NCBI GenBank assembly: GCA_001819335.1
Contig: MHMH01000021.1
Span: 1 to 62,835, forward strand
From: Candidatus Nealsonbacteria bacterium RIFCSPLOWO2_01_FULL_43_32
GTDB taxonomy: Bacteria > Patescibacteriota > Minisyncoccia > Minisyncoccales > MHMH01
DNA: 62,835 bases
Direction: 5' to 3'
Shown: positions 5,334 through 46,516 of the stretch, in pieces
How the letters are laid out: each line of letters opens with the position of its first letter
How positions within the stretch are numbered: the first letter of the stretch is position 1
Notes under the pieces: generated by a model
What the model saw: only the letters and a program-made list of their open reading frames with translations
Told to the model about the DNA's origin: nothing
Database searches by the model: none
Program-made: the position numbers and the translations under genes

Positions 5334-6179
5334 TTATTTAATAATATAATTAATAATCTTGTAAACCAGTTTGGCAGCCAGAAAATCTGGCGCTGTCAAA
5401 CCGGGAATCGGGTCCAACTCAACCACGTCAGCCCCGATGATTTTTCTTTTTTCAGCCACTTCTTTAATTAAATTAAGAACTTCGTACCAGCCCAGCCCGC
5501 CGGGTTCCGGCGTGCCGGTGGAAGGCATAATGGAAGTGTCCAAGCCGTCCAAGTCAAAGGTCAGATAGACGTTTTCTTTTAAGGTAGCGATAATTCTATC
5601 AACAGGAATTTCCGGCGCCAAAAAGATATGCTCGGCTTCTTCACCTTCTGGCATGCTCCTGATGCCCACTTGGGTAATGGGCAATCCTAAATCCTTGATT
5701 CTTTTCATCACGCACGCGTGGTGAAACTTCGTTCCCTCAAACTCCTCTCGCAAATCAGAATGAGCGTCTATCTGCAAAACTGAGAAATCATCAAATTTTT
5801 CTTTGAAAGCCTGGACCGCTCCCAGAGTGATTGAATGCTCACCGCCCAGCATCATTGGAAATTTTCCATCCTGCAATAATTGATCAACAACGTTTTTGAT
5901 GCGAGCTATGGTTTCTTCGGGCGAATTTTTAGAAGGTTCCAGCAACTCTAAAGTAAAAATGCCCTGCTTTGAGGCGTCTTTTTTTGTTTCCATGTCATAA
6001 AGCTCAATATGACGCGAGGCCTCGATCATGGCCTGAGGACCGTCTTTGGTACCTGATTTCCAATAAGTCGTGGAGTTGTAAGGCACGGGGAAAATCGCCA
6101 CTTTAGCTTTTTCATAATCTTGCTCGTTAAGCCCCAGGAAATTGAAGGGCTCTAAGGTTGGATAGGAAAATTCTTTCAT
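5334..6179 (-). CDS. speB: Agmatinase (arginase/ureohydrolase family)
   Basis: 281 aa. Mn-binding blocks GGEHSIT, DAHSDL and FDLDGLD. Confidence 0.9.
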   Translation of the reverse strand: MKEFSYPTLEPFNFLGLNEQDYEKAKVAIFPVPYNSTTYWKSGTKDGPQAMIEASRHIELYDMETKKDASKQGIFTLELLEPSKNSPEETIARIKNVVDQLLQDGKFPMMLGGEHSITLGAVQAFKEKFDDFSVLQIDAHSDLREEFEGTKFHHACVMKRIKDLGLPITQVGIRSMPEGEEAEHIFLAPEIPVDRIIATLKENVYLTFDLDGLDTSIMPSTGTPEPGGLGWYEVLNLIKEVAEKRKIIGADVVELDPIPGLTAPDFLAAKLVYKIINYIIK

Positions 6180-6215
6180 TGATCAAGTTTTTATTTTAAT
6201 AAAAACGAAGATGAA

Positions 6216-6234
6216 GATGAAGCCTTGCTTCATC
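6216..6234 (-). terminator. Weak hairpin downstream of the DHS-like gene (possible attenuating terminator)
   Basis: GATGAAG-caagg-CTTCATC on the minus strand, followed by ttcatcttcgttttta. Confidence 0.3.
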
Positions 6235-6242
6235 GCCCTAAA

Positions 6243-7385
6243 TTACCGCTGGTGCTTTTTATAAAGCTCATCAGCCGTCCAGCTGACCGGCTTGTCCTTA
6301 ATTTCTTTTTCCAAATCATAAACCAGCTGATCAAGCTTAAGATAGAGATTCTTTTGTTTTCTCGGCTTAGCCTTGTCTATGGCGTAACTGAAAAGAATGG
6401 GCGTGGCCAAAGTCGTGTCAGCGTAGACTACGACTGTATCTTTTAATTCATCTGGATTGATTTTTCCCCAGGAAACCGCTTCTTGCGGAGTCGCTCCGCT
6501 CAAGCCCCCCCACTGCGGACTGTCCATGGTCACCTGGATGAAATAATCGTGTCCGCCTCTCTCTATCCCCAGGCACTCCCATAGAAACGGCTGGGTCTGC
6601 ATATAAAAATTCTTGGGGGAGCCTCCGCCAAGAAGTATAGCGCCGTTCTTTTTGGCCGCATTCACAATGGCCACCGTTTCAATCACGTCCCAGTTAGGAT
6701 TAATATGTAAATCAATCGAGCCCTTTCTTTCCAGGCCTTTGTGCCTGGCCTTGTTGAAATTAGCCAAGTCCATGCCGTAAGTGCTGTCGCCGGGCGAAGA
6801 GGTGTAAACCGGAATATTGTATTTGGCCGCTTGCGCCAAAATGGAACCTTCGGGATTGGGCGCGTCTTTCAAAAGGCACTTACCCAGATAGTTATGAAAC
6901 TCGGCAGAGGAAACCGCGCCTCTGGGCGCTTTCTTGTCCAATAAAACTTTCTGAGTCCACTTATCGGTGTTTAATAAAGTATCCGTGGTTAAGAAAATAT
7001 CGTAAATCCTCACCACTCCGTGCTTATACAAGGTCGTGTCGTCTATCTGCCAGGTTCCTTTATATAAAGGAAAGTTCAAGGCGAAATGAGTATCATGATA
7101 GAGGTTGGCGCCGGTTGAAATGATAAAATCAATAAAGCCCTTCTCCATCATGGAAACAAAAAGTCCGGACATACCGGCCGGGGTCAAAGCGCCTGCAATC
7201 GTCACTCCGATGGTGGCATCGTTTTTTTGAGCCAGCATTTTTTCAACTAACAGCCGGCTGGCTTCCCCAAGTCTGGCCGAATTATAAGCTTGGTAATAAT
7301 TTTCAACCAAATCAGAAACCAAAAGACCTTTCTTTAATTTCAAAGATGAGATTTTTTTACCGGAAAGAAAAGGATTTTTTTTCAT
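6243..7385 (-). CDS. Deoxyhypusine synthase-like protein
   Basis: 380 aa. DHS-family pattern ISTGANLYHD, TSSPGDS, ILLGGGSPKNF and YADTTLATPIL. Confidence 0.85.
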   Translation of the reverse strand: MKKNPFLSGKKISSLKLKKGLLVSDLVENYYQAYNSARLGEASRLLVEKMLAQKNDATIGVTIAGALTPAGMSGLFVSMMEKGFIDFIISTGANLYHDTHFALNFPLYKGTWQIDDTTLYKHGVVRIYDIFLTTDTLLNTDKWTQKVLLDKKAPRGAVSSAEFHNYLGKCLLKDAPNPEGSILAQAAKYNIPVYTSSPGDSTYGMDLANFNKARHKGLERKGSIDLHINPNWDVIETVAIVNAAKKNGAILLGGGSPKNFYMQTQPFLWECLGIERGGHDYFIQVTMDSPQWGGLSGATPQEAVSWGKINPDELKDTVVVYADTTLATPILFSYAIDKAKPRKQKNLYLKLDQLVYDLEKEIKDKPVSWTADELYKKHQR

Positions 7386-7415
7386 CGAGCTTTAATAAAT
7401 TAAAGCGAAGATTAA

Positions 7416-7436
7416 GAAGAGGACTAAGTCCTCTTC
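7416..7436 (-). terminator. Hairpin between the arginine decarboxylase and DHS-like genes
   Basis: GAAGAGGAC-tta-GTCCTCTTC on the minus strand, with a moderately T-rich tail. Confidence 0.35.
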
Positions 7437-7453
7437 GCATATTCATATTTTTC

Positions 7454-7996
7454 TTAAGGAATAAAAACAGCCATGGCCACCGTGGAAACCCAGCGGCCGT
7501 CTTTGTCGCCTCGGGCGCTTTGCGTCACGTTGGTGGTACGCACAATTTTCCCTGACAAACGAAAGGCCTGGCGCCGCGAGTCCCAAGCCTCATCGGGATT
7601 GAATTTCAAACCCAAAGTGGAAGCTAACATGGAAGCTGCCAAATCTTCGGCGTAGTCGCCGGCCCTGTCGCTCGTTTCGCCGAAAGGATGATGCTCTGAA
7701 AGATAGCCGTACTTTTGCTTATCTGCGGGAATAGCGCAACCGACCGAAGCGGAAAGAAGACGATTGGACTCATTGGTACAATTTCTGGCCAAAACCACAA
7801 AAACTACTTCGCCCGGGCTTAAAAATTCCAAGCCCTTAGCTCTGGTAACTTTTTTACAACCGGGCGGCAAAATACTGGAAACTGAAACCAAATTAAACGC
7901 GGCCATGCCCGCATCTCTCAACGCCAGCTCAAAAGAAGCCAGGTAATCCCGGTGAATGCCTACTCCTTTGGTGAGAAAAAATTTAGTCGGTACCAT
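7454..7996 (-). CDS. pdaD: Pyruvoyl-dependent arginine decarboxylase
   Basis: 180 aa. FFLTKGVG...SFELALRDAG..NLVSVSSILPPGC contains the Ser-Ser self-cleavage site region. Confidence 0.9.
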   Translation of the reverse strand: MVPTKFFLTKGVGIHRDYLASFELALRDAGMAAFNLVSVSSILPPGCKKVTRAKGLEFLSPGEVVFVVLARNCTNESNRLLSASVGCAIPADKQKYGYLSEHHPFGETSDRAGDYAEDLAASMLASTLGLKFNPDEAWDSRRQAFRLSGKIVRTTNVTQSARGDKDGRWVSTVAMAVFIP

Positions 7997-13261: not shown

Positions 13262-14560
13262 ATGAGTAATGTCCTAAATTTAAGGAAAATTCTTCTTCTT
13301 TTTGGCGATATTGTTCTTCTTTATTTGGCATTGTTTCTAACAGTCTTTTTTGATTTTCCTCAGCATGTGCTTCCCTTTTCAATTTTATATTTCTTTTGGC
13401 TGATTATTTTTTATATTTTCGGCCTCTACGATCTCGGCGCCATTAGAATCAGGGTGGTTCTGTATCCTAAAATTTTAGGCGCAATTCTTTGCGGGCTTGG
13501 ATTAGGGATGGTCTTTTTCTATTTGGTACCACTTTTTGGAATTACTCCCAAAACCAACCTGCTCTTGAACGTTTTAATCTTCGGGGTTTTATTTCTAATC
13601 TGGCGCAAGCTTTTTGGCTTTTTATTTTCTTCCCGTTTCTTCAACAATGTGGCGATCTTGAGTAGAGACCCGCAAAAAATCGAAACTTTAGCAAAAGAGA
13701 TAGCCCTCCGTCCTTACCTGGGGTATAAATTAACGGCCACTTTTAACGATGGCAAAGACTTGCTTGCCAAAATCCAAGAGAAGAAAATTAACGCGCTGAT
13801 CGTCGCCGAAGATTTTGAAACAGATTTCGATCTATTAGAAAATCTCTATCAATGTTTGGAAGCGAGGATAATCTTTTTAGATTGGAACCAGGCCTACGAA
13901 TTATTTTGCGAAAAAATACCCACCGCCTTTCTGCAGAAAAAATGGTTTTTAGAAAATCTGAAAGAGGGAGAAAGAAAATTTTATGACAAAATAAAAAGAG
14001 GGCAAGATTTGATTTTAGCGACAATTTTACTGATTGCTACGAGCATCTTTTGGCCGTTAATTGTACTTTTGATAAAATTAGGCGATAGGGGTCCTGTAAT
14101 TTATCGCCAAGAAAGAATCGGCAAAGACAGAAAACCGTTTCTCCTCTTTAAGTTCAGGTCGATGAACGTTGATGCGGAAAGCGAAACCGGCCCGGTTTGG
14201 GCTAAAAAAGAAGACCATAGGGTCACGAAAGTCGGAAAACTTTTAAGAAAGATACACCTTGATGAATTACCCCAAATGATTAATGTTTTGAAGGGAGATA
14301 TCAGTTTGGTGGGGCCCAGACCGGAACGCCCCGAGTTTGTCGAAAAATTGGAAAAAGAAATTCCCTACTATCACGTGCGTCACCTCATCAAGCCAGGCTT
14401 CACCGGCTGGGCCCAATTGAAGTTCAGATACGGCCGGTCGGTCGTCGACAGCAAAGAAAAGTTTCAATATGACTTATATTATATGAAAAACAGGAGTCTT
14501 TTTTTGGACTTAGGAATTTTGTTAAAAACCTTTCAATTATTTTTTAAAAAAGAGAAATGA
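13262..14560 (+). CDS. Polyprenyl-phosphate glycosylphosphotransferase (bacterial sugar transferase, WbaP/EpsL type)
   Basis: 432 aa. N-terminal TM helices and a C-terminal GPVIYRQERIGKDRKPF.L.KFRSM...LVGPRPERPEF domain. Confidence 0.9.
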   Translation: MSNVLNLRKILLLFGDIVLLYLALFLTVFFDFPQHVLPFSILYFFWLIIFYIFGLYDLGAIRIRVVLYPKILGAILCGLGLGMVFFYLVPLFGITPKTNLLLNVLIFGVLFLIWRKLFGFLFSSRFFNNVAILSRDPQKIETLAKEIALRPYLGYKLTATFNDGKDLLAKIQEKKINALIVAEDFETDFDLLENLYQCLEARIIFLDWNQAYELFCEKIPTAFLQKKWFLENLKEGERKFYDKIKRGQDLILATILLIATSIFWPLIVLLIKLGDRGPVIYRQERIGKDRKPFLLFKFRSMNVDAESETGPVWAKKEDHRVTKVGKLLRKIHLDELPQMINVLKGDISLVGPRPERPEFVEKLEKEIPYYHVRHLIKPGFTGWAQLKFRYGRSVVDSKEKFQYDLYYMKNRSLFLDLGILLKTFQLFFKKEK

Positions 14561-15804
14561 TAAATAAAATTAGAAATCAGATTTACCGACTTCTAAGAAG
14601 TACTCAAAAATACACCAGCACCGATAATGTTTATTTGGCCCGAGGCGGGTTCTGGCTGATCTTGGGGCAGGTTACTGCGGCCGCTACCTCTTTTTTATTA
14701 GCTCTGGCTTTCGCCAATTTACTTCCGAAAGATACCTACGGCAATTACCAATATATAATTTCTTTAGTGGGAACTCTGGGCATCTTTAACCTGACCGGAA
14801 TGAGAATAGCGGTCAGCCAGGCAACTGCCCGGGGGTTGGAAGGCTCTTTTTACACTGGTTTTAAAACCCAATTAAAATGGGGATTTTTGGCGAGTATTGT
14901 GGCTATCGGAGGCGCTCTTTATTATTGGCTTCGAGGCAATATACTTTTGCCCATTCCCCTGCTGCTCATTGCCGTCTTTCTGCCCCTGATGTTAGCTTCT
15001 CGGGTTTATATCGGCCTTTTAGCGGGAAGAAAACTGTTTAACGTCCAGACAAAATACGGCATCATCAATCAGGTTGTCGCGGTCTCTATAATGATTGCCG
15101 TTCTTCTTCTCACTAAAAATCTCCTTTGGCTGGTGACCGCCTATCTTCTGTCCCACACTTTTCTAAATTATTTCCTTTACCTTTTAATTAAGCACCGATT
15201 TCAGCCGAACAAAAAAGAGGATCCTCAAACCATCTCTTACGGGTTTCATATCAGTCTCATGGCGGTTATGAGCAAAGCCGCCTCTTACGCGGATAAAATA
15301 ATACTCTTCACCGTAATCGGTTCTAGCCAGTTGGCTGTTTATTCTTTCGCCATTATTATTCCCGGAGAAATTCAAAAAATCCTGGGGCACATTTTAACCC
15401 TTGCCGCTCCAAAATTAGCCCCGAAATCCCGGGTTGAAATCAAAAAAACCATCATGAAAAAAGTCGGGAAATTGTTTCTCTTAACAGCGGCCTTAGCCAT
15501 ACTCTATATTATCATTGCTCCCTATTTCTATAAAATATTTTTCCCTCAATATTTAGAGTCCGTCCCTTATTCCCAACTGTTTATACTTTCTTTTATCTCT
15601 GTTCCCATGGGCTTGTTGGGCGTCTCCTTCCAAGCTAAAATGATGAAAAAAGAGCTTTATCTGATAAAAATCGCGCCTTTCATTAAAATAGCTCTTTTAG
15701 CTGTGCTCATTCCTTTTTACGGAATCTGGGGAGCGATTATGGCGATCATCGGCGCCGAAGCCATCCAATCGGGTTTGGTTTTATTTTTGTTCAGAAAATT
15801 TTAA
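14557..15804 (+). CDS. Oligosaccharide/polysaccharide flippase (Wzx/PST family)
   Basis: 415 aa, about 12 TM helices. ATGA overlap with the sugar transferase gene. Confidence 0.7.
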   Translation: MINKIRNQIYRLLRSTQKYTSTDNVYLARGGFWLILGQVTAAATSFLLALAFANLLPKDTYGNYQYIISLVGTLGIFNLTGMRIAVSQATARGLEGSFYTGFKTQLKWGFLASIVAIGGALYYWLRGNILLPIPLLLIAVFLPLMLASRVYIGLLAGRKLFNVQTKYGIINQVVAVSIMIAVLLLTKNLLWLVTAYLLSHTFLNYFLYLLIKHRFQPNKKEDPQTISYGFHISLMAVMSKAASYADKIILFTVIGSSQLAVYSFAIIIPGEIQKILGHILTLAAPKLAPKSRVEIKKTIMKKVGKLFLLTAALAILYIIIAPYFYKIFFPQYLESVPYSQLFILSFISVPMGLLGVSFQAKMMKKELYLIKIAPFIKIALLAVLIPFYGIWGAIMAIIGAEAIQSGLVLFLFRKF

Positions 15805-16485
15805 TTTTTGGGCTCTTGCCAAGTCCTCGGGGAAATCGATATCAATAAATTGAGCATCTTTAATATCGTAAGCTTTGACTGTTTCCCCTTTTTGAATAAG
15901 ATGATCAATCACCGTAATAAAAGACGTTTCTAAATTGTCTTTTAATTCGTTCTCCAGTTCTTTGATCAGTTTTTCGGCGCCGTACTCCGAGAACTTGGCA
16001 ATGCCGATAAATTCGCTGTTTTCTTTGGCCAATTTCGCCTTGCTTATTCTTTTAATCAGCCCCGCCTCTTCGATAATCTTTTCCGCCTCTGCCCTTAAAT
16101 CATTTTTCTTGGCAGCCAAACAAATATCTCCCTCTTGCCCCAATAACGCCCCGATGGTCTCGGACTCGAATAAAACATCGGAGTATAAAAACAAAAAACC
16201 GTTTTTTATTTCATTTTTAGCCATCCAGAGACTGGCGGCTATGCCTGAAACATCGTAAAACGGATTGAATAATGTTTTGATACTCTTCTCCCGGCAAAAT
16301 TCTTCCATTTTCTTTGATAAGTAGCCGGTGATAACAACCACGTCCTCAAGCCCGGCTTCTTTTAAAAGCCTAATCTGTTTCTCTAAAATAGTCTCTTCCC
16401 CGATTTTCAGCATTGATTGGGGAGTTTCTTTGGTTAGGGGCAATAATCGGGTTGATTTGCCCGCCGCTAAAATAATTGTTTTCAT
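15781..16485 (-). CDS. LicC-like nucleotidyltransferase (phosphocholine/phosphonate cytidylyltransferase family)
   Basis: 234 aa. IILAAGKSTRLLPLTKETPQSMLKIG...YSDVLFE...FIDIDFPEDL. Confidence 0.7.
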   Translation of the reverse strand: MKTIILAAGKSTRLLPLTKETPQSMLKIGEETILEKQIRLLKEAGLEDVVVITGYLSKKMEEFCREKSIKTLFNPFYDVSGIAASLWMAKNEIKNGFLFLYSDVLFESETIGALLGQEGDICLAAKKNDLRAEAEKIIEEAGLIKRISKAKLAKENSEFIGIAKFSEYGAEKLIKELENELKDNLETSFITVIDHLIQKGETVKAYDIKDAQFIDIDFPEDLARAQKLKFSEQK

Positions 16486-16496
16486 AAATTTTTTAT

Positions 16497-17288
16497 TTAT
16501 TCTAATCTTTCAATCCTGATTATTTTCTTGCGGACATAGGCGCTGAACCGATCGATGGCCGCCACTCCCAAAACCATAATAATTAAAATAGTCAAAACTT
16601 CCTGATTGCGGAAAAGCCGCATACTGGTGATTAACTCCATACCGATACCGCCCGCTCCCACCAAACCCAAAACCGTGGCGGCTCGGAAATTGTTCTCCAG
16701 ATAATAAAAAGCGTAATTAATGAAAAGCGGCTTAACCTGGGGGAAAATTCCCCTGACAATAACCTGAAATTTATTCGCTCCGGTTGAAACAATCGCTTTG
16801 ATTATTTCGGGATCCACAGTTTCAATCGCTTCGGAAAAGTACCTGCCCAGGGCTCCCGTCACATGAGCGGCCAAAGCTAAAACCCCGGGAAAAGGTCCTA
16901 AACCAACCATTGAGACAAAAATCAATCCCCAAACAATTTCGTTGATTCCCCGGCAAGTGTCAAAAACGCCCCTGACCACATGATAGATGAATCTATTGGA
17001 CGTCACATTTCTCGCCGCGAGAAACGACAAAGGCAGGGCGATTAACGCTCCCAGGGTCGAACCGATAATCGCCATTTGCAGGGTCTCTAAAGCTTTAAGT
17101 AAAAATTTACCCAAGTTGCTGACATCGGGCGGGAACATCCTCGACACGAAATCAATCATAAAAGGAATTCCTTCGATGAAATTAATCGGATTTGTATCCG
17201 TGCCGCTGATCGACCAATAATAAATAACGATTATTGCAAGGCCGATAAGAAGTTTTCGGTATCTGCTTTTAAAAACCAGTTTTGCCAT
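16497..17288 (-). CDS. phnE: Phosphonate ABC transporter permease
   Basis: 263 aa. PhnE-type pattern ETLQMAIIGSTLG...EAIETVD...GANKFQV...P. Confidence 0.88.
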   Translation of the reverse strand: MAKLVFKSRYRKLLIGLAIIVIYYWSISGTDTNPINFIEGIPFMIDFVSRMFPPDVSNLGKFLLKALETLQMAIIGSTLGALIALPLSFLAARNVTSNRFIYHVVRGVFDTCRGINEIVWGLIFVSMVGLGPFPGVLALAAHVTGALGRYFSEAIETVDPEIIKAIVSTGANKFQVIVRGIFPQVKPLFINYAFYYLENNFRAATVLGLVGAGGIGMELITSMRLFRNQEVLTILIIMVLGVAAIDRFSAYVRKKIIRIERLE

Positions 17289-18042
17289 AAAGATGCCAAT
17301 CTTCGGTTTCGCCGTAGATGTTAATAAGGTCTTTTTCCGTTAAGTCGGCGGAGCATCCGTTAAAAACTATTTCGCCGTTTCTCATGCCGATGATGCTCGT
17401 GCCGTATCTTTTGGCGAAATCGAGAAAATGAAGGCTCGTGACCAAAGTGATGCCCTTTTTGCGGCAAATATTCGTCAACAAATCCATAATCTCTTTCATG
17501 AGCTTCGGGTCTAAACTGGAAACGGGTTCGTCGGCTAAAATGATTTCCGGGTTTTGAGATAAAGCTCGGGCGATGGCCACTCTTTGCTTTTGGCCGCCGC
17601 TTAAATCCGTCACCCGCTCCTTCTTAAAATCCGCCAAATTAACCATGGAGAGGCTTTCTCTGGCAACGGAGTAATCTTCCGGCGAGAATCTGCTAAAAAT
17701 GGTATTGAAGTTGGTATTGTATCTCAAACGGCCGTTAAGCACGTTTTGGGCTACGCTCTCTCTTTCGATCAGATTGAAATTTTGGAAGATCATGCCAATC
17801 TTGCCCCTAATCTGATATACCTTTTCCAAAGGACTGTGCAGAATATCTTCGCCGTTGATGAATATTCTGCCGGACGAAGGCTCAACCAGCCGGTTGATCG
17901 CTTTAAGCAAAGTCGATTTCCCCGAACCGGAAGAGCCGACGATAACCAAACTTTCGCCCTTTTGGATTTCAAGATTAATATTTTTCAGGGCTTCGATCCC
18001 TCGATTTTGATAAGTATGGCTAAGATTCTCTATTTTGATCAT
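17269..18042 (-). CDS. phnC: Phosphonate ABC transporter ATP-binding protein
   Basis: 257 aa. Walker A GSSGSGKST, signature LSGGQKQR, Walker B ILADEP. PhnC-like IGMIFQNFNLIERESV. Confidence 0.88.
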   Translation of the reverse strand: MIKIENLSHTYQNRGIEALKNINLEIQKGESLVIVGSSGSGKSTLLKAINRLVEPSSGRIFINGEDILHSPLEKVYQIRGKIGMIFQNFNLIERESVAQNVLNGRLRYNTNFNTIFSRFSPEDYSVARESLSMVNLADFKKERVTDLSGGQKQRVAIARALSQNPEIILADEPVSSLDPKLMKEIMDLLTNICRKKGITLVTSLHFLDFAKRYGTSIIGMRNGEIVFNGCSADLTEKDLINIYGETEDWHLYGKTGF

Positions 18043-18953
18043 TTTATTTGGCGGCGCCTGGGGCTGGCCACGTCCATGCCTAAAATTGCCGCAGTTTGCC
18101 TAATGATGTCGTAATCGCTGTCAGATACTTCCTGGTACTTGGCGATATCGCCCCAGCCCGAGACCTCGTGAATCGTCTGCTCCTGCATATTAATCAAAGC
18201 GTCTTTAATTTTCTGCTTCAATGCTTGAGGCAAATCTCCCCTGATGGCAATGGGCGAGCCGGGAATCGACGGCGAGGTAAAGATGATTTTATTAACCGCC
18301 GGGTCAATTTCGCCGGCTTTAACCATTCTATCATAAGAGTTGTCGCTGTCCGCTCCCGCAGCCACTTTTTTATTGGCAATGGCGTATTCCACCGCATTGT
18401 GAGTGCCGGCGTAAAAAACCGTACTGAAATCTTTATCGGGATCTATCCCGTTTTCCAGCAGCATTTTTCTCGGAATCAAATTGCCCGAGGTTGAAGCCGG
18501 GTCGACAAAAGCGAAGCTTTTGCCTTTTAAATCTTCAAGTTTCGTGATGCCGCTGTCGGCTCTCGCCACAATAACCGAATGATAATCCGATTTGCCGTCG
18601 CTTCTCCTTACGCCATTGACGATGGCCTCGGCTCCGGCCATATTTTTAGCAATAATATAAGAGAATGGTCCGAACCAGGCCATTTCAATGTGTTTGGACC
18701 TCATCGCCTCAATAGCCGCCGTGTAATCGGAAGTCACCTGGATTTCCACGGGCATGCCTAATTTTTCCGAAAGATAAGCCCTCACGGGCTCGTAATCTCT
18801 AATCATTTCTTCGGCGTCATCGGCCGGAATAAGTCCCATCCTTAAAACTTTAATTTCATTTCCTCCACTGGGTTGATTTTTAACTGCTTGCCAAACCCCT
18901 ACTCCTAAAATAATAACGACGACTGCAACTAATAATTTGGCCATTTTTGACAT
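18039..18953 (-). CDS. phnD: Phosphate/phosphite/phosphonate ABC transporter substrate-binding protein
   Basis: 304 aa. N-terminal anchor, then a PhnD-family pattern: LRMGLIP, AAIEAMRSKHIEMAWFGPFSY, FVDPASTSGNLIP. Confidence 0.88.
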   Translation of the reverse strand: MSKMAKLLVAVVVIILGVGVWQAVKNQPSGGNEIKVLRMGLIPADDAEEMIRDYEPVRAYLSEKLGMPVEIQVTSDYTAAIEAMRSKHIEMAWFGPFSYIIAKNMAGAEAIVNGVRRSDGKSDYHSVIVARADSGITKLEDLKGKSFAFVDPASTSGNLIPRKMLLENGIDPDKDFSTVFYAGTHNAVEYAIANKKVAAGADSDNSYDRMVKAGEIDPAVNKIIFTSPSIPGSPIAIRGDLPQALKQKIKDALINMQEQTIHEVSGWGDIAKYQEVSDSDYDIIRQTAAILGMDVASPRRRQIK

Positions 18954-18995
18954 ATTTTTAGTTAAATTAAATTTTAATAATAAATAATGATGTGA

Positions 18996-19763
18996 TTACG
19001 TTTCCCGACCTTTAAAAATTTGCCTTACTTTTTCTAAATCCTGCTCCGTATCTATCTCCCACCAGTTTTTCTTAATCAGGACGGGATAAACCTCAAACCC
19101 CCTGTCAATCAACTCTTGAAGCATATCGGTCAAATAAGCTTTCTCGAAGGTCGCTGCTTGCTGAAAGGGCTTTCCCCAATATTGGCTTTTCACTCTTTGA
19201 AATTCTTTTTTAAAGATTGCGGCGCCCTGCTCACTGAATTTAACCAGACCGATAAACTCGCCTTGCGAGTCTTGAACGGTTAAATGTTTCCCGATTTTTA
19301 ACACTTGGCCGCCTTGAATCATGACTTTTTCTGCTTCTTCTAACGGGTGTTCTGTCCTGTCTTGATAATATTCCTGCCAATCAATATCAACCACCACGGC
19401 AATGTCATTTTTATTCTCCAGCAATCTCTCCACCACGCTTTTGTCGTAGAGAATATCACTGTAAGCAGCGATGAAGCTCCCATTCATTGCCGACTCGGCA
19501 CAAAATAGAGAGTTTAAAATATTGTTATTTTGATAATTGGCGTTTTCGTAGTATTTTATGCCGGGGAAATTTATTTTATTGCCCTGATATCCCCTGACTA
19601 TTGCCGCATCTGTTATCCCGCAGAGCTTTAACGTTTGCAGTTGTCGCTCCATAATTGTTTTATCGCCTATTCTTAAGAGACACTTGGGGATATCATTGGT
19701 CAGGGGATTTAAGCGTTTCCCCATGCCAGCGGCAATGATGATGGCCTTGGAAATCTTATTCAT
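18996..19763 (-). CDS. LicC-like nucleotidyltransferase, paralogue of 15781-16485
   Basis: 255 aa. IIIAAGMGKRLNPLTNDIPKCLLRIG...YSDILYD...WWEIDTEQDL. Confidence 0.7.
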   Translation of the reverse strand: MNKISKAIIIAAGMGKRLNPLTNDIPKCLLRIGDKTIMERQLQTLKLCGITDAAIVRGYQGNKINFPGIKYYENANYQNNNILNSLFCAESAMNGSFIAAYSDILYDKSVVERLLENKNDIAVVVDIDWQEYYQDRTEHPLEEAEKVMIQGGQVLKIGKHLTVQDSQGEFIGLVKFSEQGAAIFKKEFQRVKSQYWGKPFQQAATFEKAYLTDMLQELIDRGFEVYPVLIKKNWWEIDTEQDLEKVRQIFKGRET

Positions 19764-20497
19764 GTTTTAATATTTTTAATTCCCTGATATTGCTTAAATA
19801 ACAATACGAAATACATCAGCGGGGAAAGAATTCCGTAAAAAATAACGATTAAAGACACTTTATCTATAATAACGGCCAAAGGAATCCAAAAAATAATGCC
19901 GGTGGTTATACCCCCAAAGGACGACAAGATTCTCTTTAATCTCTTATCTGAATAAAAAGCTCTCTCGCCGGCTTTCCGATAGGCCCCTTCCGACTGCCGG
20001 CCCGACTGTAAAATAGCGCTGATGTATCTAAGCTTGGCCAAGCGAAGCAACACCTTAAACATTGAGGCGGAAAATCCTAAAAGAATCAGCAAGATCGGGT
20101 AAACAAACGCAGCATATGCTCCCAAAGCCAAAGGAATAAACAGCGCGGCGCACTTAATGTCATGAGTCATCGGTTCCATAAAAGAGCCCCCGAGGCCGCT
20201 GCCCGAACCCCGGTACCTGGCCACCTCGCCGTCGCTTAAATCTATAATGTGGGCCAGCCAAAGAAGAGCAATGCCCGTTAAACTCCACCAATACTCTCCT
20301 TTAATAAAACAAAGACTGCCTAAAACAAAGAGAACCGTGCCCCAAATTGTAACTTGGTTCGCGGTAAGCCTCTTAAAATGTAAAAAGAACCAAGTAAAAT
20401 AGATGGAAAAATTCCGAAAGAATCGGTTGATGAAAGATTCTTTCCCTGCTTCTCCCTGTTTCTGACAGATTTTTCTTAATTCTTTGATTGATTCCAT
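19760..20497 (-). CDS. CDP-alcohol phosphatidyltransferase-family membrane protein
   Basis: 245 aa, polytopic. DLSDGEVARYRGSGSGLGGSFMEPMTHD resembles the DG(x2)AR...G(x3)D(x3)D signature. ATGA-coupled to the nucleotidyltransferase. Confidence 0.75.
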   Translation of the reverse strand: MESIKELRKICQKQGEAGKESFINRFFRNFSIYFTWFFLHFKRLTANQVTIWGTVLFVLGSLCFIKGEYWWSLTGIALLWLAHIIDLSDGEVARYRGSGSGLGGSFMEPMTHDIKCAALFIPLALGAYAAFVYPILLILLGFSASMFKVLLRLAKLRYISAILQSGRQSEGAYRKAGERAFYSDKRLKRILSSFGGITTGIIFWIPLAVIIDKVSLIVIFYGILSPLMYFVLLFKQYQGIKNIKT

Positions 20498-20508
20498 ACA
20501 ATATCTAT

Positions 20509-20557
20509 ATTATTACGGAAGCCGTTGAACATGTCAAGAGGTGTCAAAAAGGGTCAT
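20509..20557 (-). promoter_or_regulatory. Internal promoter with three phased 10-bp repeats (second copy of the 18-nt element)
   Basis: Minus strand: TGACCCTTTT TGACACCTCT TGACATGTTC, with TTGACA at 20537-20532, a 17-nt spacer and AATAAT at 20514-20509. The ATG at 20497 lies 11 nt downstream. Confidence 0.6.
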
Positions 20558-22233
20558 TCATCTAAAAATTCTACCGCTTGGTCAACGACCCACTTCGAAC
20601 CGTTCTGATAGGGATTGCCAAAGAATTGCTCCTGTAATTTGATCAAATCTTCTTTGGGCACGTCAATGCTTTTTCTAATTTTATCAATCAGGTCCTGGGG
20701 ATCTTTGGCGAAAAAACGGCCCTGAAAATCAAAAGTCCTGATATCAAAGTAATCCCCCCACCTGTCTGTCCAGAAAAACACCAGGGGTTTGAGCTGAGCC
20801 AACCCCTCCAGGACCGAAGTGCTATGAGAGCCCACCACCACCCGGGATTGCGAAATTGCCTGATGAATATCCCCCTTTAAAACCTTTATCCTTTCCAATA
20901 TGCCCGGTTCATTCTTTTTCAACCAATCCTCAAAGCCGTCTCTTTGAGGCCGAATCTTTAAAGACAAAGCAAAATCTTTTACTAACAGCAGAGCCAAAAG
21001 ATAGGGCATTACTTCTTTAGGGTCGGCTAACTGCTCAGAGATAAAAAGAACCTTTACGGGACCCGTGGAAGGGGCCGCCTCCTCGACATTCTTTCTTTCT
21101 AAAGGACGCATATGGCCGGACACACCGAGTTGTTCTGGTTTAAAAGCACGGCTGTATTTAAGATAATAGTCTCGCCACCAATTTGACCAAAGACCATACT
21201 TGTCGAGGGAAAGTGGCTTTTTGCCATCAAACTCGGGCATAAAATCAGAAACAAAGTAATAACGGGGTATCGCGCCATGCTGAATGCCTACCGTTTTTAT
21301 TCCGGCTAATTTACAGCCCAAAACTTCATAGAAAGTGCGATTGCATCCCGCAGTGGTTATAGCAGCCTTAACTCCTATCCACTGCAAAATAAACTTCATT
21401 ACCCGGATAGACCAAATAGTTCCCCTAATATTGCGAAGATAATGAGTAGAAACTTGAAACCAAAAACGCTCCTCGGGGTCGATATTCGAAAAAGGAGGCG
21501 AATAACGACCGAAGCAATTGGCAAAAGAATTTATAAATCCAATGATGGCCGTAGAATAAACCACCGGCCTTTTTCTCCGCCAAGCATGCCCTAAGACCGT
21601 CATTGAGGACTCCAAGCTCCGGATAAATTCAACAAAAGGAATTTTTCTTTTTCTTAACTCCTCATAGATAAATTTTTGCCGGTAATCAAAATCATACGGG
21701 GGATCAAATTTGTCGCTTGTCCGAACCATCAATGCGGGCCTCGTAATCTTTAGCCAGAGTAAAAAACCAAGAGAAAGCAGACACTGGATAAAAACACCCG
21801 AGGGGACGGGCAATAAGTTTCTGAACCGAAACTGGCTGATGATGGTGCACCGGCGATCGTGGGCTCTTAAGAAATATTGGAAAAGATGAGGCCAAGGTGC
21901 TTGGAAAAGAGATACTCTCTCAAAATTCTTTAAATAGAACAATAACTTACGGTATTGGGTGTAAGGCAAACAAAATTTATAGTGGATACTCTCATAGTGC
22001 ATCCACCAAAGCTCATAACCCTGCAAATTTACCAGTTTTGACAAACGGGAGCCGTCAGGCAGAATGAAACGGGAAAGTTTATTGCTAAGCGCGTAAGCCT
22101 GCTGGATGCTGCCGGGACTGATGAAATTTTGCAGTTCTTTTGGGCCGATAATCTCATCAAACTGCCGGTACCATTTTTTGGGTTTTGAGGGAAAATCTTT
22201 GCCAAAGATTACTAAGAGAGATTTTTTATTCAT
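20554..22233 (-). CDS. Uncharacterized 559-aa protein, possibly a GT-B-like (TagF/capsule-type) transferase
   Basis: Long ORF in operon context. The C-terminal half (VGIQHGAI..., VKVLFISEQ..., VVVGSHSTSVLEG) looks like a two-Rossmann transferase, but I recognise no specific family. Confidence 0.4.
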   Translation of the reverse strand: MNKKSLLVIFGKDFPSKPKKWYRQFDEIIGPKELQNFISPGSIQQAYALSNKLSRFILPDGSRLSKLVNLQGYELWWMHYESIHYKFCLPYTQYRKLLFYLKNFERVSLFQAPWPHLFQYFLRAHDRRCTIISQFRFRNLLPVPSGVFIQCLLSLGFLLWLKITRPALMVRTSDKFDPPYDFDYRQKFIYEELRKRKIPFVEFIRSLESSMTVLGHAWRRKRPVVYSTAIIGFINSFANCFGRYSPPFSNIDPEERFWFQVSTHYLRNIRGTIWSIRVMKFILQWIGVKAAITTAGCNRTFYEVLGCKLAGIKTVGIQHGAIPRYYFVSDFMPEFDGKKPLSLDKYGLWSNWWRDYYLKYSRAFKPEQLGVSGHMRPLERKNVEEAAPSTGPVKVLFISEQLADPKEVMPYLLALLLVKDFALSLKIRPQRDGFEDWLKKNEPGILERIKVLKGDIHQAISQSRVVVGSHSTSVLEGLAQLKPLVFFWTDRWGDYFDIRTFDFQGRFFAKDPQDLIDKIRKSIDVPKEDLIKLQEQFFGNPYQNGSKWVVDQAVEFLDE

Positions 22234-22236
22234 GTC

Positions 22237-23715
22237 TTAAAAATATTTTTCCTGGTAAATCCTTTTCAATTCTTCAAACATCTTATTCCCCTCTTCGTCA
22301 AACTTTTCCGCTATTTTAATCTTAGGCCATTCCGTTTTGGAAAATCTCGCGTATAAGGGGAAAGTCCTCTGCAAGCCCTTCAATTCTTCGTAGGTGATGG
22401 AATCCATGTTAAGCCTGACGCTGTCCGTCAAATTGTGCACTTTGGCGTTTTTATCAAGGTAATCCTTTTTAATACAATATTGATACAAAGTTGTACCTTT
22501 ATAAGGAACGAAAAGATAGCAATTGATGGTGCGGGGATTTAATTGGCGATTTAATTCAATGGTATCGAAAATAAGCTCTCTTGTTTCGTCGGGGAAACCA
22601 ATAATATTGTTAACAGTATAGAGTATCCCGTATTTCTCAACCATCTTCAAACCCTTCAGCATCTGCTGATTTGAGCCGGAACGGTTAAGTATTCTTTTCC
22701 GAAATTCTTCATTCCCGTGTTCAATGCCAAATTGCAGGGTCTCGCAATTCATTTCTTTTAGAATCTTTATTTTTTCTTCGGTGACGGTTTCCGGCCTAGT
22801 CTGACACCAAAAAGGCAGGCCGATTTCTTTATATTTTTCAGCAAACTCCTGAAGTTCTTCCAAGGGTTTTGCTAAAAATGTTTCTGAATTAAAATTAACA
22901 TAGTCAGGATTGTATTTTTTGACCAAGTGCCTCATTTCCGCTATTAATCTGTCTATGTTCTTTCTTCTGTAATATAAACCGCAACCTTTCTCTTGAAATA
23001 TTTTTTTGAGCTGAGGAGCCCCGCAGTAAGTACAATTATTAGGACAGCCCCGATCCATCTCTACATGCATCATAGTGTAAATCTTGCCGAACATCGGCCG
23101 GGCCAGCCTTTCTTTGCCGAAAATATCGTAATCAATATAAGGAAGTTTATTAATGTCAGTGAGCGACCTTAGGGGATTTTTCACAATCTTCCCCTCTTTT
23201 TTAACCCAAAGGTTTTTGACTTGAGAATAATCCTCGCCTTTTGACAATTTCTGACAAAGTTCTGCCAAAGTCTCTTCGCCTTCGCCGAGACAAATCATGT
23301 CAACCGCCTTATTTTGAATCACTTCTTCTGGTGAAAAAGTCACATAAACACCTCCGGCAATAACCGGAATATCAAAATCTTTTATCTTCTCTAATAGGGC
23401 TTGAGCTAAATCCCAGGTATCTTCAACAATAGTTAAAGCAATTAAATCAGGCCTAAATTTACTAACCTTTTTGATCAAATCGCCGTAAATATCGGTTTCT
23501 GTAAACTGCACTCCCTTGTCAGCCAGATTAAAGGGCTTCAACTGCAACAATTCCACCCTTTTTTGCTCAAAACTAATATCTTCTGTTTTATAGAAAGTCG
23601 TATCAAACAAATCAACCTCAAAGCCCCTCTCCTTCAAACAAGCTGAAAGCAAAGACAAATTGATTGGCACTAAAGTCGCCATCATTGTGTTGGGATAAAT
23701 GAACAATATTTTCAT
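22237..23715 (-). CDS. B12-binding-domain radical SAM protein (subfamily A)
   Basis: 492 aa. N-terminal Rossmann-like domain with GEGEETL, then NLWVKKEGKIVKNPLR and Fe-S motif DRGCPNNCTYCGAP. Confidence 0.9.
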   Translation of the reverse strand: MKILFIYPNTMMATLVPINLSLLSACLKERGFEVDLFDTTFYKTEDISFEQKRVELLQLKPFNLADKGVQFTETDIYGDLIKKVSKFRPDLIALTIVEDTWDLAQALLEKIKDFDIPVIAGGVYVTFSPEEVIQNKAVDMICLGEGEETLAELCQKLSKGEDYSQVKNLWVKKEGKIVKNPLRSLTDINKLPYIDYDIFGKERLARPMFGKIYTMMHVEMDRGCPNNCTYCGAPQLKKIFQEKGCGLYYRRKNIDRLIAEMRHLVKKYNPDYVNFNSETFLAKPLEELQEFAEKYKEIGLPFWCQTRPETVTEEKIKILKEMNCETLQFGIEHGNEEFRKRILNRSGSNQQMLKGLKMVEKYGILYTVNNIIGFPDETRELIFDTIELNRQLNPRTINCYLFVPYKGTTLYQYCIKKDYLDKNAKVHNLTDSVRLNMDSITYEELKGLQRTFPLYARFSKTEWPKIKIAEKFDEEGNKMFEELKRIYQEKYF

Positions 23716-24479
23716 TAATTGTTTTTGTAAGGAGTTTTGTCTCCGGTGAAGCCATTATATTTCAGCCACCATTCAACTTGACCCCATTGCCACTCGTAAT
23801 CAATGTCCAAGCCCGCCTCATTTTCAATGGGATAAATTTTCTGGCCCATCCACTGCTGGGGCTTCACACCTTCTTCGATATTGTCCAAGCATCTGGGTCT
23901 CACCAAAGAAAGCGCCACGTCAGCCAGCCAAGCATCACCGGCTGAATCCCGGTCGCAGCTCATGGTCTTGGGGTCGCCAAAGGCCTCAAGAGGCACAAAG
24001 GGTTCTATCAAGCCGTCTTTGTTGATTTTTCTCATTCTGTTGGGGTGGTACATGTTGTATTTGCCCACTGTAATGACCGAGTCGTAATCAGGGTGCTCCC
24101 TTAAGATTTCAACTCCCTTGTCAATCTGGCTCGCCAAAACTGTCGGAGCGTTGCAGTGCAATAACGCAATGAATTCCACCTCCTTGCCTTCTTTTTTCAA
24201 TTCATCGCGGATGACGTTGAACCCGTGAACGAATGCGTCCTGGCCCAGGGCCTTATGGCCGGCCAGTTCCGCGGGCCGGTCGATGACCCTAGCTCCTTGC
24301 TGCTTGCTGATTTCTTTTATTTTGTCTGAATCCGTAGAAACATAAACTCTTTCTACATATTTAGAATTTTGGGCAGCTAATATGGGGTAAACCATGAGAG
24401 GCCTACCCAAAGCTGGCTTAATATTTTTCCCGGGGAACCCTTGGCTCCCCTCCCGGCCGATAAGTAAAGCGACAATCAT
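23715..24479 (-). CDS. Acylneuraminate (CMP-sugar) cytidylyltransferase-family protein
   Basis: 254 aa. ALLIGREGSQGFPGKNIKPALGRPLMVY...VYVSTDSD...RPAELA is a NeuA/CTP_transf_3-type N-terminus. Confidence 0.8.
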   Translation of the reverse strand: MIVALLIGREGSQGFPGKNIKPALGRPLMVYPILAAQNSKYVERVYVSTDSDKIKEISKQQGARVIDRPAELAGHKALGQDAFVHGFNVIRDELKKEGKEVEFIALLHCNAPTVLASQIDKGVEILREHPDYDSVITVGKYNMYHPNRMRKINKDGLIEPFVPLEAFGDPKTMSCDRDSAGDAWLADVALSLVRPRCLDNIEEGVKPQQWMGQKIYPIENEAGLDIDYEWQWGQVEWWLKYNGFTGDKTPYKNN

Positions 24480-37578: not shown

Positions 37579-37591
37579 ATGATGGTTATGA

Positions 37592-38158
37592 TTAAGAAAC
37601 TCGGGAATCAATTAAACGACAAATAATATGGCCGATCAAAATATGAATTTCTTGAGTCCGGTCGCTTTCTTGAGACGGCACCACCAACGGAATATCAACT
37701 AAATTTTTCAGCAGGCCGCCGTCATTGCCTAGAAATCCGATAGTTTTCAATCCTTTAAATTTAGCGACTTCAACGGCTCTAATAATATTCTGTGAATTAC
37801 CGCTGGTGGAAATGGCGATTAAAATGTCGTCTTTGCCGCCCAGGGCCTCGATCTGTCTGGAGAACAATACATCATATCCATAATCATTGGCAACCGCTGT
37901 CATAATTGAGGTATCGGTGGTGAGAGCTATGGCCGGCAAGCCCCGGCGTTCTTTTTTAAAGCGTCCCACGAGTTCCGCGGCAATATGCTGGGCATCGGCG
38001 GCCGAGCCTCCATTCCCGCAAAGTAAAAGTTTTCTGCCTTGAGCATAAGCATTAATAATCAAATCGGCGACTTGAGCGATTTTAGGAACCAACTCATCTT
38101 TAACTGCTTGATGAAGCTCGATATTCTTATCGAATAGTAATTTAATAATATTTTCCAT
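37592..38158 (-). CDS. gmhA: Phosphoheptose (sedoheptulose-7-P) isomerase
   Basis: SIS domain: LLCGNGGSAADAQHIAAELVGRF...ISTSGNS. The ATG at 38158 lies 2 nt after the HTH stop. The track start at 38167 is GTG. Confidence 0.88.
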   Translation of the reverse strand: MENIIKLLFDKNIELHQAVKDELVPKIAQVADLIINAYAQGRKLLLCGNGGSAADAQHIAAELVGRFKKERRGLPAIALTTDTSIMTAVANDYGYDVLFSRQIEALGGKDDILIAISTSGNSQNIIRAVEVAKFKGLKTIGFLGNDGGLLKNLVDIPLVVPSQESDRTQEIHILIGHIICRLIDSRVS

Positions 38159-38160
38159 GT

Positions 38161-45169: not shown

Positions 45170-45170
45170 A

Positions 45171-46496: not shown

Positions 46497-46516
46497 AATA
46501 TATTACAATACAACAT

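Follow-up and report, generated by a model that had tools for sequence, protein, structure and literature searches.

An importer-linked pair of LicC/PntC-like nucleotidyltransferases and a divergent CDP-alcohol phosphotransferase-family protein in a Nealsonbacteria glycan locus: a candidate import, activation and attachment module

The contig MHMH01000021.1 of Candidatus Nealsonbacteria bacterium RIFCSPLOWO2_01_FULL_43_32, a candidate-phylum (Patescibacteria) bacterium, was analysed over its whole length of 62,835 nucleotides (62.8 kb, hereafter the window). It carries a block of six minus-strand genes running from position 20497 down to 15781, which encode a divergent membrane protein of the cytidine diphosphate (CDP)-alcohol phosphotransferase family (hereafter the transferase), a LicC/PntC-like nucleotidyltransferase (NT_A), the PhnD, PhnC and PhnE components of a phosphonate-type ATP-binding cassette (ABC) importer and a second nucleotidyltransferase (NT_B). 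We propose that the block is an import-activate-attach module with a small phosphonate as its most likely cargo, a reading to which comparative genomics gives, in our judgement, about an even chance; the general mechanism of import, cytidylylation and transfer looks well supported by the same comparisons. The gene identities, the conserved linkage, a swap of the importer cassette and the link of relatives to phosphoenolpyruvate (PEP) mutase were observed, whereas we infer which reactions take place, which nucleotide is used and what serves as cargo and acceptor. In the proposed scheme, PhnDCE would import a small phosphonate or phosphate compound from outside, with PhnD held to the membrane by its N-terminus. 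NT_A, and probably NT_B too, would join this cargo with cytidine triphosphate (CTP) to give a donor linked to cytidine monophosphate (CMP) and resembling a CDP-alcohol. The divergent transferase would then move the phosphonyl or phosphoryl group to a hydroxyl acceptor at the membrane, releasing CMP. This hydroxyl would belong to a lipid or to an intermediate, linked to a lipid, of the nonulosonate/heptose glycan encoded nearby, and the likeliest cargo would be a small polar-tailed phosphonate of the aminoethyl- or hydroxyethylphosphonate type. The module would amount to the known phosphonyl-tailoring pathway with PEP mutase (Ppm), Ppd and the transaminase swapped for an importer, and importing in place of synthesis would suit a reduced candidate-phylum genome.

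Layout and recurrence of the gene block

Matches to Pfam and NCBIfam placed the six genes as a preliminary description of this DNA had them, with phnDCE lying between two LicC-like nucleotidyltransferase genes beside a CDP-alcohol transferase gene (Table 1). The transferase/NT_A and PhnD/PhnC junctions are 4-nt overlaps, PhnC and PhnE overlap by 20 nt, and the two gaps measure 42 nt (NT_A-PhnD) and 11 nt (PhnE-NT_B). The internal promoter that the same description placed at 20509-20557 was recovered as the best sigma-70-like match within 15.5-22.5 kb, which agrees with the consensus at 11 of 12 positions (a consensus match only) and sits in the 56-nt gap upstream of the transferase gene. The claimed contiguity with a glycan island held as well: the module closes a glycan operon longer than 30 kb, which encodes nine B12-binding radical S-adenosylmethionine (SAM) enzymes, heptose- and nonulosonate-type sugar-nucleotide enzymes, glycosyltransferases and methyltransferases. 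Downstream of the module lie a convergent flippase, an initiating sugar transferase and a Wzy-like ligase. All three importer components passed their curated equivalog models: PhnD scored 281.8 bits against a cut-off of 261.1 (TIGR03431), PhnC 310.2 against 266.1 (TIGR02315) and PhnE 291.8 against 216.7 (TIGR01097). A crude hydropathy scan found one N-terminal hydrophobic segment in PhnD (residues 6-24). The Pfam scan covered 63 long open reading frames (ORFs) tiling the window, shorter overlapping ORFs being left out, and returned no PEP mutase, carbon-phosphorus (C-P) lyase or phosphonatase, as had been stated from the sequence, nor any PhnA or PhnZ. The same ORFs gave no match to LicA/choline kinase (PF01633), LicD (PF04991), ethanolamine kinase or inositol-phosphate synthase, and tblastn with a PEP mutase domain and a 2-aminoethylphosphonate (2AEP, or AEP) transaminase found no Ppm or AEP transaminase homologue in the window.

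The arrangement was repeated in independent loci, which confirmed that the linkage goes beyond chance. The order 559-aa protein (encoded upstream of the transferase), transferase, NT_A, PhnD recurred in a Nealsonbacteria genome bin (L003) and in two further loci (L084 and L087); the transferases there are only about 50% identical to that of the window, and PhnD is 80-90% identical. Another Nealsonbacteria locus (L004) has the same start of the block until its contig ends, with a transferase 82% identical. The full block was found in GCA_043814215.1 (L171), where identities to the window are 58% for NT_A, 74% for PhnD, 69% for PhnC, 81% for PhnE and 61% for NT_B; a canonical CDP-OH transferase directly follows NT_B, and nonulosonate genes adjoin. 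The orthologous site of a related genome, seen in the loci L085 and L088, carries a different importer. Its transferase and NT_A are 59% and 82% identical to those of the window, and the upstream genes held in common encode a GT2-ADH fusion, a 2-hydroxyacid dehydrogenase and a 534-aa protein that is a distant homologue (23% identical) of the 559-aa protein. Both sites also have the flippase and the initiating transferase downstream, and the longer contig, L088 (GCA_043956695.1), shares the Wzy-TPR and peptidoglycan-binding genes too. Between these flanks (L085 3527-7003 and L088 10805-14281, orthologous to 15781-18953 of the window), PhnDCE and NT_B are replaced by an HD-domain protein, a cytoplasmic PF01663 alkaline-phosphatase-superfamily enzyme and a major facilitator superfamily (MFS) transporter of the organophosphate:phosphate antiporter family (GlpT/PgtP/UhpT). 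Nealsonbacteria RBG_13_38_11 (L170, GCA_001819195.1) likewise has an NT_A homologue (65% identical) and a methyltransferase joined to an antiporter-family MFS transporter, followed by a CDP-alcohol phosphotransferase and a LIC12162-family protein. One member of this antiporter family, AepP, is a proven 2AEP permease (PMC8316502).

The coupling of NT_A to a transporter extended far beyond these genomes. A profile of the NT_A family recovered 80 metagenomic loci at 50-58% identity, of which 64 were assessable, having at least 450 bp of downstream sequence. The next gene downstream of NT_A encodes PhnD in 49 of the 64, an antiporter-family MFS transporter in 12 and neither in three; a transporter follows NT_A in 61/64, counts that may include related lineages and do not represent independent events. 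The median distance from NT_A to PhnD was 117 bp, and PhnC and PhnE usually came next. The pattern nevertheless spans two transporter classes and several phyla, and chance adjacency is effectively excluded. The named sources of the metagenomic loci were Aminicenantes bins, and the annotated names of the NT_A-family genes were inconsistent (PEP phosphomutase, choline kinase or glutamine-phosphate cytidylyltransferase). An N-terminal XRE-type helix-turn-helix (HTH) domain was present in 64 of the 80 genes; the NT_A of the window is unfused and has no such domain. A second nucleotidyltransferase was seen in one of 81 marine loci (the 80 of the scan plus L089), which makes the two-nucleotidyltransferase layout specific to the candidate-phylum type. 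The PhnD proteins linked to NT_A in marine loci are 31-38% identical to the PhnD of the window.

Several features of the marine loci were recorded in their own right. A widespread marine and sediment operon consists of an XRE-HTH-nucleotidyltransferase fusion followed by PhnD, PhnC and PhnE (L089 6542-14237 and about 49 further loci among L092-L169), with PhnE often joined in one protein to a second PhnD-like domain (518 aa). TagF-like genes and genes for membrane-anchored sulfatase-family proteins (LtaS/EptA-like) are frequently found near this operon. In L146 (3358-7747), the HTH-nucleotidyltransferase gene lies between phnC and phnE, not upstream of phnD.

Enzymes, binding pocket and phosphonate synthesis clusters

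Both nucleotidyltransferases matched PF12804 and PF00483, and they are 30-33% identical to each other. In sequence searches of the PDB, the best solved relatives of each were Streptococcus pneumoniae LicC (1jyk) and then the Treponema denticola PntC-AEP transaminase fusion (6pd1), with sugar-1-phosphate enzymes ranking below both. The NT_A family profile gave 85.8 bits to LicC, 57.9 bits to PntC and at most 51 bits to the sugar enzymes. The two proteins group by sequence with LicC and PntC and not with sugar-1-phosphate enzymes, and the LicC-like assignment made earlier stood. The refuting condition set in the preliminary description, which coupled clustering with sugar-1-phosphate enzymes to C-P cleavage genes elsewhere in the genome, accordingly did not overturn the salvage reading. 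NT_A has 2609 homologues at E ≤ 1e-10; the nucleotide- and metal-binding residues are invariant across its family, including G13, R17 and K27 of the N-terminal nucleotide-binding signature. In a search of 1.84 billion representative proteins, the family of NT_B was diffuse and brought no added context. The two proteins also differ in their likeness to enzymes of phosphonate clusters. Against nine Ppm-fused nucleotidyltransferase domains (26-35% identical to NT_A), NT_A scored 91-155 bits, about twice as high as NT_B (57-83 bits) in 9/9 comparisons; the stand-alone nucleotidyltransferases of Ppm loci scored slightly higher with NT_B than with NT_A. By these scores NT_A is the more similar of the two to the Ppm-fused type, and NT_B, by a small margin, to the stand-alone type. 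The pairing of inositol-phosphate cytidylyltransferase (IPCT) with DIPPS, which the preliminary description had mentioned as an alternative, was not borne out: scores against NF041135 reached 71.9, 62 and 16.9 bits against a cut-off of 580, and the long ORFs hold no inositol-phosphate synthase match. An attempt to read substrate specificity from residues was abandoned, because the sequence alignments of the nucleotidyltransferases to LicC and PntC span the N-terminal half only and Foldseek did not discriminate.

The transferase matched PF01066 (CDP-OH_P_transf) just over the cut-off (27.2 against 22 bits) and showed at least four hydrophobic segments in the crude hydropathy scan. Its nearest solved relative is AF2299 (4o6m), which its family profile matched at 72 bits. 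The motif reads D86xxD89G90xxA93R94...G104xxxE108xxxH112, in which D86, D89, G90, A93 and R94 are invariant across its family. When aligned to AF2299, the family signature D1xxD2GxxAR...GxxxD3xxxD4 has Glu108 at D3 and His112 at D4, followed by Asp113, and Glu108/His112 are conserved among the close family. On this sequence evidence the protein is a putative variant member of the CDP-alcohol phosphotransferase family, and a rare one, with about 19 homologues above 46% identity among 5.8 billion proteins. It may make a lipid or modify a lipid-linked glycan.

The relatives of the transferase tied the block to phosphonate synthesis. Close relatives, 38-51% identical, occur in three Ppm/Ppd/AEP-transaminase clusters (L002, L005 and L006). 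In one of these, L002, a transferase 51% identical to that of the window is accompanied by a PEP mutase fused to a nucleotidyltransferase, an AEP transaminase, a second nucleotidyltransferase that stands alone and a CobD/HisC-like pyridoxal-phosphate (PLP) enzyme; its mutase and transaminase pass curated equivalog cut-offs. Among 80 genome loci of wider transferase relatives, 12 have PEP mutase within 10 kb. With PEP mutase present in about 5% of bacterial genomes (PMC8942020) and a 20-kb stretch making up less than 1% of a genome, about 0.03 loci would be expected by chance. A member of the NT_A family, 53% identical, was also found in such a setting: the cluster L078 encodes a PEP mutase-nucleotidyltransferase fusion, a Ppd-like thiamine-pyrophosphate enzyme, this NT_A-family protein, a NUDIX hydrolase, a cytidylate kinase and a transferase homologue, after which come pseudaminic-acid genes. 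The largest published group of phosphonate clusters combines genes for Ppm, Ppd, AEP transaminase and an oxygenase with lipid genes of the CDP-OH type and two PntCs, one of them in fusion with Ppm (PMC8942020), and PntC enzymes were shown to make CMP-AEP (PMC6697681). Since the window keeps the nucleotidyltransferases and the transferase while lacking the synthesis genes, it corresponds to the published core of two PntCs and a CDP-OH enzyme with an importer in place of synthesis. Two details of these clusters were noted separately. In L002, the PLP enzyme (5814-6881), which resembles threonine-phosphate decarboxylase, is flanked by the stand-alone nucleotidyltransferase and the transferase. 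This arrangement recalls the nucleotidyltransferase-decarboxylase logic of FrbH. In L078 (8693-9993), the NUDIX hydrolase and the cytidylate kinase lie between the NT_A-family gene and the CDP-alcohol phosphotransferase homologue, which suggests built-in CMP recycling or proofreading of a CMP-linked donor; a CMP kinase fits a reaction that releases CMP, as that of the transferase would.

The pocket of PhnD was compared with those of characterised binders. The head-group ligands are kept (Y77, Y124, S154-T155-S156 and H185, corresponding to E. coli Y47, Y93, S127-T128-S129 and H157); the numbering of the E. coli PhnD sequence used in this alignment reproduced 8/8 published residue positions. 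At the tail positions aligned with E. coli Glu177/Asp205 the protein has N205 and S233, and D202 and D204 lie in the same loop. In E. coli PhnD, Glu177/Asp205 bind the amine of 2AEP; in PtxB and marine PhnD1, a tyrosine cap at the second tail position sterically excludes larger tails; and in GpxB, a PhnT-family protein specific for glycerol phosphate, Arg223/Thr247 bind the glycerol hydroxyls (PMC12718374). The alignment showed no phosphite/methylphosphonate-type tyrosine cap in the PhnD of the window (PGSPI against PQYPW, with Ser233 at the cap position). It has no GpxB-type Arg/Thr pair at the positions that PMC12718374 equates with E. coli E177/D205, where Asn and Ser stand, the GpxB sequence itself lying outside the alignment. 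With Asn205/Ser233 as its tail pocket, PhnD fits no characterised specificity. The loss of the tyrosine cap points to a polar-tailed ligand that exceeds phosphite and methylphosphonate in size. The preliminary description had proposed comparing this pocket with AEP-, phosphite- and methylphosphonate-binding homologues, and the outcome was split, the head group agreeing and the tail matching none of the three. Phosphite uptake and oxidation, raised because PtxB is the nearest solved relative, was rejected, as the tyrosine cap is absent and the sole PtxD candidate in the window, a 2-hydroxyacid dehydrogenase, scores higher with phosphoglycerate dehydrogenase (162 bits) than with PtxD (101 bits).

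The preference for salvage and decoration over catabolism, already expressed from the sequence, is supported by four independent kinds of genomic context: synteny at 50-80% identity, the swap of the importer cassette, the transporter in 61 of 64 loci, and the presence of relatives in PEP mutase/Ppd/AEP-transaminase clusters.

Alternative cargoes and functions

A number of results weigh against a phosphonate cargo or the proposed chemistry. None of the 80 metagenomic NT_A loci contains a PEP mutase gene; TagF-like glycerophosphotransferase-family genes occur in 18 of them, and LtaS/EptA-like sulfatase-family genes are often nearby. The marine PhnD proteins beside NT_A-family genes have tail pockets of Arg or Leu with Pro or Ala. 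The PhnD of the window lacks, by alignment, the E. coli-type Glu177/Asp205 pair that binds the 2AEP amine, and its nearest solved relatives are phosphite and methylphosphonate binders, PtxB being the closest. Of the PntC amine contacts Glu104/Glu196, the N-terminal-half alignment gives NT_A Tyr101/Ser102 at the Glu104 position. The AlphaFold2 (AF2) model of NT_A (mean predicted local distance difference test, pLDDT, 93) had the PntC-AEP transaminase 6pd2 as its top Foldseek match, with a template-modelling (TM) score of 0.77, followed by the Thermotoga maritima inositol-phosphate cytidylyltransferase as second-best (0.75), RmlA (0.75) and LicC (0.74); judged from the model, Foldseek barely separates PntC from inositol-, choline- and sugar-phosphate enzymes. 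The chemistry of the transferase may depart from the family norm, because two signature aspartates are replaced (D3 by Glu and D4 by His). The absence of catabolic genes holds for the 62.8-kb window, and such genes may be present elsewhere in the genome. Because the metagenomic loci lack PEP mutase and the marine PhnD tail pockets differ, the cargo may vary between clades.

The strongest alternative keeps the logic of import, cytidylylation and transfer and replaces the cargo by a phosphate ester, for which glycerol-1/3-phosphate, phosphoethanolamine, phosphocholine and a polyol or inositol phosphate are candidates. Such a module would produce either a phospholipid head group or a decoration of the teichoic-acid-like or phospho-alcohol kind. 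We consider a phosphate ester unlikely but a genuine contender, and a phosphonate an evenly balanced call. In favour of an ester, both nucleotidyltransferases have LicC as their top match by sequence, the transferase has AF2299 as its nearest solved relative, and TagF-like and LtaS/EptA-like genes often accompany the marine NT_A loci. The alternative transporter is GlpT/UhpT/PgtP-like, the alkaline-phosphatase-superfamily enzyme of the swapped cassette could process an imported ester, and the PhnT-family binder GpxB is specific for glycerol phosphate (PMC12718374), with marine PhnD carrying Arg where GpxB uses Arg223. Both transporter classes contain 2AEP members (PhnD and AepP) as well as glycerol-phosphate members (GpxB and GlpT). 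Against an ester stand the clusters of Ppm, Ppd and AEP transaminase in which the transferase relatives (L002, L005, L006) and the NT_A-family member of L078 are found, and the absence of choline/ethanolamine kinase and LicD from the long ORFs of the window. The PhnD of the window has Asn/Ser and not the Arg/Thr of GpxB, and structure 9lf9, which we take to be GpxB although it was deposited merely as a phosphonate-binding protein, is a distant match at 58 bits. CDP-glycerol, moreover, is normally made by PF01467 enzymes. An orthology of marine PhnD with GpxB was likewise considered and rejected, the putative GpxB structure 9lf9 giving only 45 bits.

Cytidylylation might instead trap the imported compound, or feed a cytoplasmic pathway or regulatory circuit; the HTH-fused marine nucleotidyltransferase domain would then be mainly the sensor of a transcription factor controlling the transporter. 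The XRE-type HTH domain in 64 of the 80 metagenomic genes is in line with such a role, as are the many short contigs that show no transferase gene, and NadR-type proteins provide a precedent in combining an HTH domain, a nucleotidyltransferase and control of a transporter. We regard this explanation as improbable for the window, where NT_A has no HTH domain, its gene shares 4 nt with that of the membrane transferase, and the surrounding glycan island also encodes a flippase, an initiating transferase and a Wzy-like ligase. The nucleotide- and metal-binding residues are, furthermore, invariant across the NT_A family, and transferase genes (TagF-like, CDP-OH and sulfatase-family) recur where the flanks are long enough. 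An ordinary nutritional PhnCDE importer of phosphonate, phosphite or phosphate, lying beside unrelated glycan genes by chance, is very improbable: its components do pass the curated equivalog models, the solved relatives nearest to PhnD do bind phosphite and methylphosphonate, and the related picocyanobacterial PhnD1 is argued to be a constitutive phosphate transporter (PMC10284923), but the adjacency of nucleotidyltransferase and transporter in 61/64 loci and two transporter classes, the five-gene block kept in L171, the overlaps or gaps of at most 42 nt within one strand block, the absence of a catabolic or oxidising partner from the window (its dehydrogenase favouring phosphoglycerate dehydrogenase over PtxD, 162 against 101 bits) and the missing phosphite-specific tyrosine cap all speak against it.

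The import-activate-attach reading with a phosphonate cargo has a broader form. Bacteria unable to make C-P bonds, including reduced candidate-phylum bacteria and abundant marine or sediment lineages such as Aminicenantes, may capture the phosphonates of others and install them intact on their own envelope by means of a transporter-cytidylyltransferase module, with either PhnDCE or an AepP-like antiporter; this generalisation is tentative, and we rate its chances somewhat short of even. The gene phnD is a common marker of phosphonate as a nutrient, and its presence in organisms without C-P cleavage genes is described as paradoxical (PMC10284923). The coupling of importer and cytidylyltransferase offers a second, anabolic and testable role. 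If the proposal is true, a sizeable share of environmental phnD marks surface decoration and not phosphorus nutrition, and phosphonates pass between organisms without C-P cleavage. The pairing of transporter and nucleotidyltransferase is common in environmental DNA, and the interpretation of phnD in phosphorus-cycle surveys is affected by it. Through this coupling, the phosphonyl-tailoring and Lic paradigms would come to include the direct uptake of a phosphonate or phosphate head group, and candidate-phylum bacteria would be able to change their surface at little cost from scavenged building blocks.

Neighbouring genes and comparison with known systems

The 559-aa protein encoded upstream of the transferase is 100% identical to a hypothetical protein of Candidatus Nealsonbacteria bacterium RIFCSPLOWO2_01_FULL and is syntenic in L003, L004, L084 and L087. 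Its AF2 model (pLDDT 91) matched GT-B glycosyltransferases and UDP-GlcNAc 2-epimerases in Foldseek, and its family counts 317 members, mostly from candidate-phyla bacteria with one from Woesearchaeota, some of which carry PF27859 (LIC12162). Judged from the model, it probably serves the glycan pathway as a transferase that depends on a nucleotide donor, outside the core module. Its identification as a TagF-like glycerophosphotransferase was rejected, since the family profile showed no similarity to two TagF-family proteins and the model is generic GT-B. The adjacent class B radical SAM gene had been compared with Fom3 in the preliminary description, an analogy that found no specific support: the gene shows nothing Fom3-specific, and its linkage to the module is not constant, the gene being absent from the module versions of L085/L088, L170 and L171. 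Its best NCBIfam matches were HpnJ (128 bits) and PhpK (91 bits), all far under the cut-offs, and the nearest solved structure was AprD4 (52 bits), with the Fom3 sequence outside the comparison. In L170, L171, L078 and L088 the module is likewise adjoined by nonulosonic-acid genes (NeuB, CTP_transf_3 or Pse). On the convergent side, the 3' end of the flippase gene overlaps NT_B by 24 nt, and the Bac_transf/flippase pair holds the same position in L085 and L088.

Table 1. Positions in the window of the six-gene block, its predicted promoter and the adjoining genes
Feature	Position	Strand	Evidence or remark
CDP-alcohol phosphotransferase-family membrane protein, divergent, 245 aa	19760..20497	-	PF01066 27.2 bits, hydropathy
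NT_A, LicC/PntC-like nucleotidyltransferase, 255 aa	18996..19763	-	PF12804, PF00483, PDB search
PhnD substrate-binding protein, predicted N-terminal membrane anchor	18039..18953	-	TIGR03431
PhnC ABC ATPase	17269..18042	-	TIGR02315
PhnE permease	16497..17288	-	TIGR01097
NT_B, second LicC-like nucleotidyltransferase, 234 aa	15781..16485	-	PF12804, PF00483, PDB search
Sigma-70-like promoter match	20509..20537	-	TTGACA-17-AATAAT, read 20537 to 20509; consensus match only
559-aa protein, GT-B fold, no Pfam match	20554..22233	-	AF2, Foldseek, LIC12162-family relatives
Class B (B12-binding) radical SAM	22237..23715	-	Neighbour in Nealsonbacteria-type loci only
PseF-like CMP-nonulosonate synthetase	23715..24479	-	PF02348, TIGR03584 83.6 bits
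Initiating sugar transferase (Bac_transf) and flippase (Polysacc_synt)	13262..15804	+	Convergent

Further features of the window were noted independently of the module. The nine B12-binding class B radical SAM genes start at 22237, 29347, 30835, 34225, 40493, 49107, 51580, 57799 and 61122, and three other radical SAM genes start at 25260, 50537 and 59241. The set spans 22237-62579, about 40 kb of one glycan island, which is unusually dense, and its members are probable C-methylating or rearranging enzymes for sugars. Heptose-type activation genes occur in two sets, one with a SIS isomerase, a PfkB kinase and a cytidylyltransferase-like/HAD fusion (35586-38167) and the other with an unusual SIS-transaldolase fusion of 441 aa, an NTP_transferase-HAD fusion and a GHMP kinase (43862-47488). 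A 674-aa ORF at 41841-43865 had no Pfam match. The segment 53403-56680, on the plus strand and divergent from the glycan operon, encodes a carbamoyltransferase (606 aa), a methyltransferase and a weakly SxtJ-like protein, which suggests carbamoylation of a glycan or small molecule. A polyamine trio at 5334-7996 comprises a pyruvoyl-dependent arginine decarboxylase, a deoxyhypusine-synthase-family protein and an agmatinase/arginase-family protein.

No description of an import-coupled cytidylylation and transfer module was found in the searchable literature. The closest known systems are the Pnt pathway and the 'Burkholderiales_CDP-OH' clusters (PMC6697681, PMC8942020), which likewise bring two LicC-like cytidylyltransferases and a CDP-alcohol phosphatidyltransferase-family gene together in one cluster, and whose 'CDP-OH' products are themselves uncharacterised. 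In contrast to them, the window has no Ppm, Ppd or AEP transaminase and carries PhnDCE between the nucleotidyltransferases, so that supply would be by uptake. Its NT_A is unfused, its transferase has Glu/His at D3/D4, and its host belongs to a candidate phylum. PntC is defined operationally by its location beside ppm, which the window lacks, although a 53%-identical relative of NT_A is found in the Ppm-Ppd cluster L078. The Lic pathway, in which the permease LicB, the kinase LicA, the cytidylyltransferase LicC and the transferase LicD act in phosphocholine decoration, follows the same logic: a compound is salvaged, activated in CMP-linked form and passed to a surface glycan. In the window, however, a phosphonate-family ABC system would bring in the cargo as a phosphonate or with its phosphate already attached, and there is no kinase, LicB or LicD, with a transferase of the CDP-alcohol phosphotransferase family instead.

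With the PhnCDE/PtxABC/GpxB transporters (TC 3.A.1.9), the window shares components that pass curated models and the head-group residues of PhnD; it differs in being unlinked to C-P lyase, phosphonatase, PtxD or carbon catabolism and in its Asn205/Ser233 tail pocket. The IPCT/DIPPS enzymes and AF2299 of archaea and thermophiles also pair a cytidylyltransferase with a CDP-alcohol phosphotransferase, whereas the genes of the window are separate and coupled to an importer, which is not a feature of IPCT/DIPPS. The module would follow the known logic of Lic and of phosphonyl tailoring, and departs from both in its direct supply by an importer, whether PhnDCE or of the GlpT/AepP type, in the pocket of PhnD, in the Glu/His motif of the transferase and in its candidate-phylum host.

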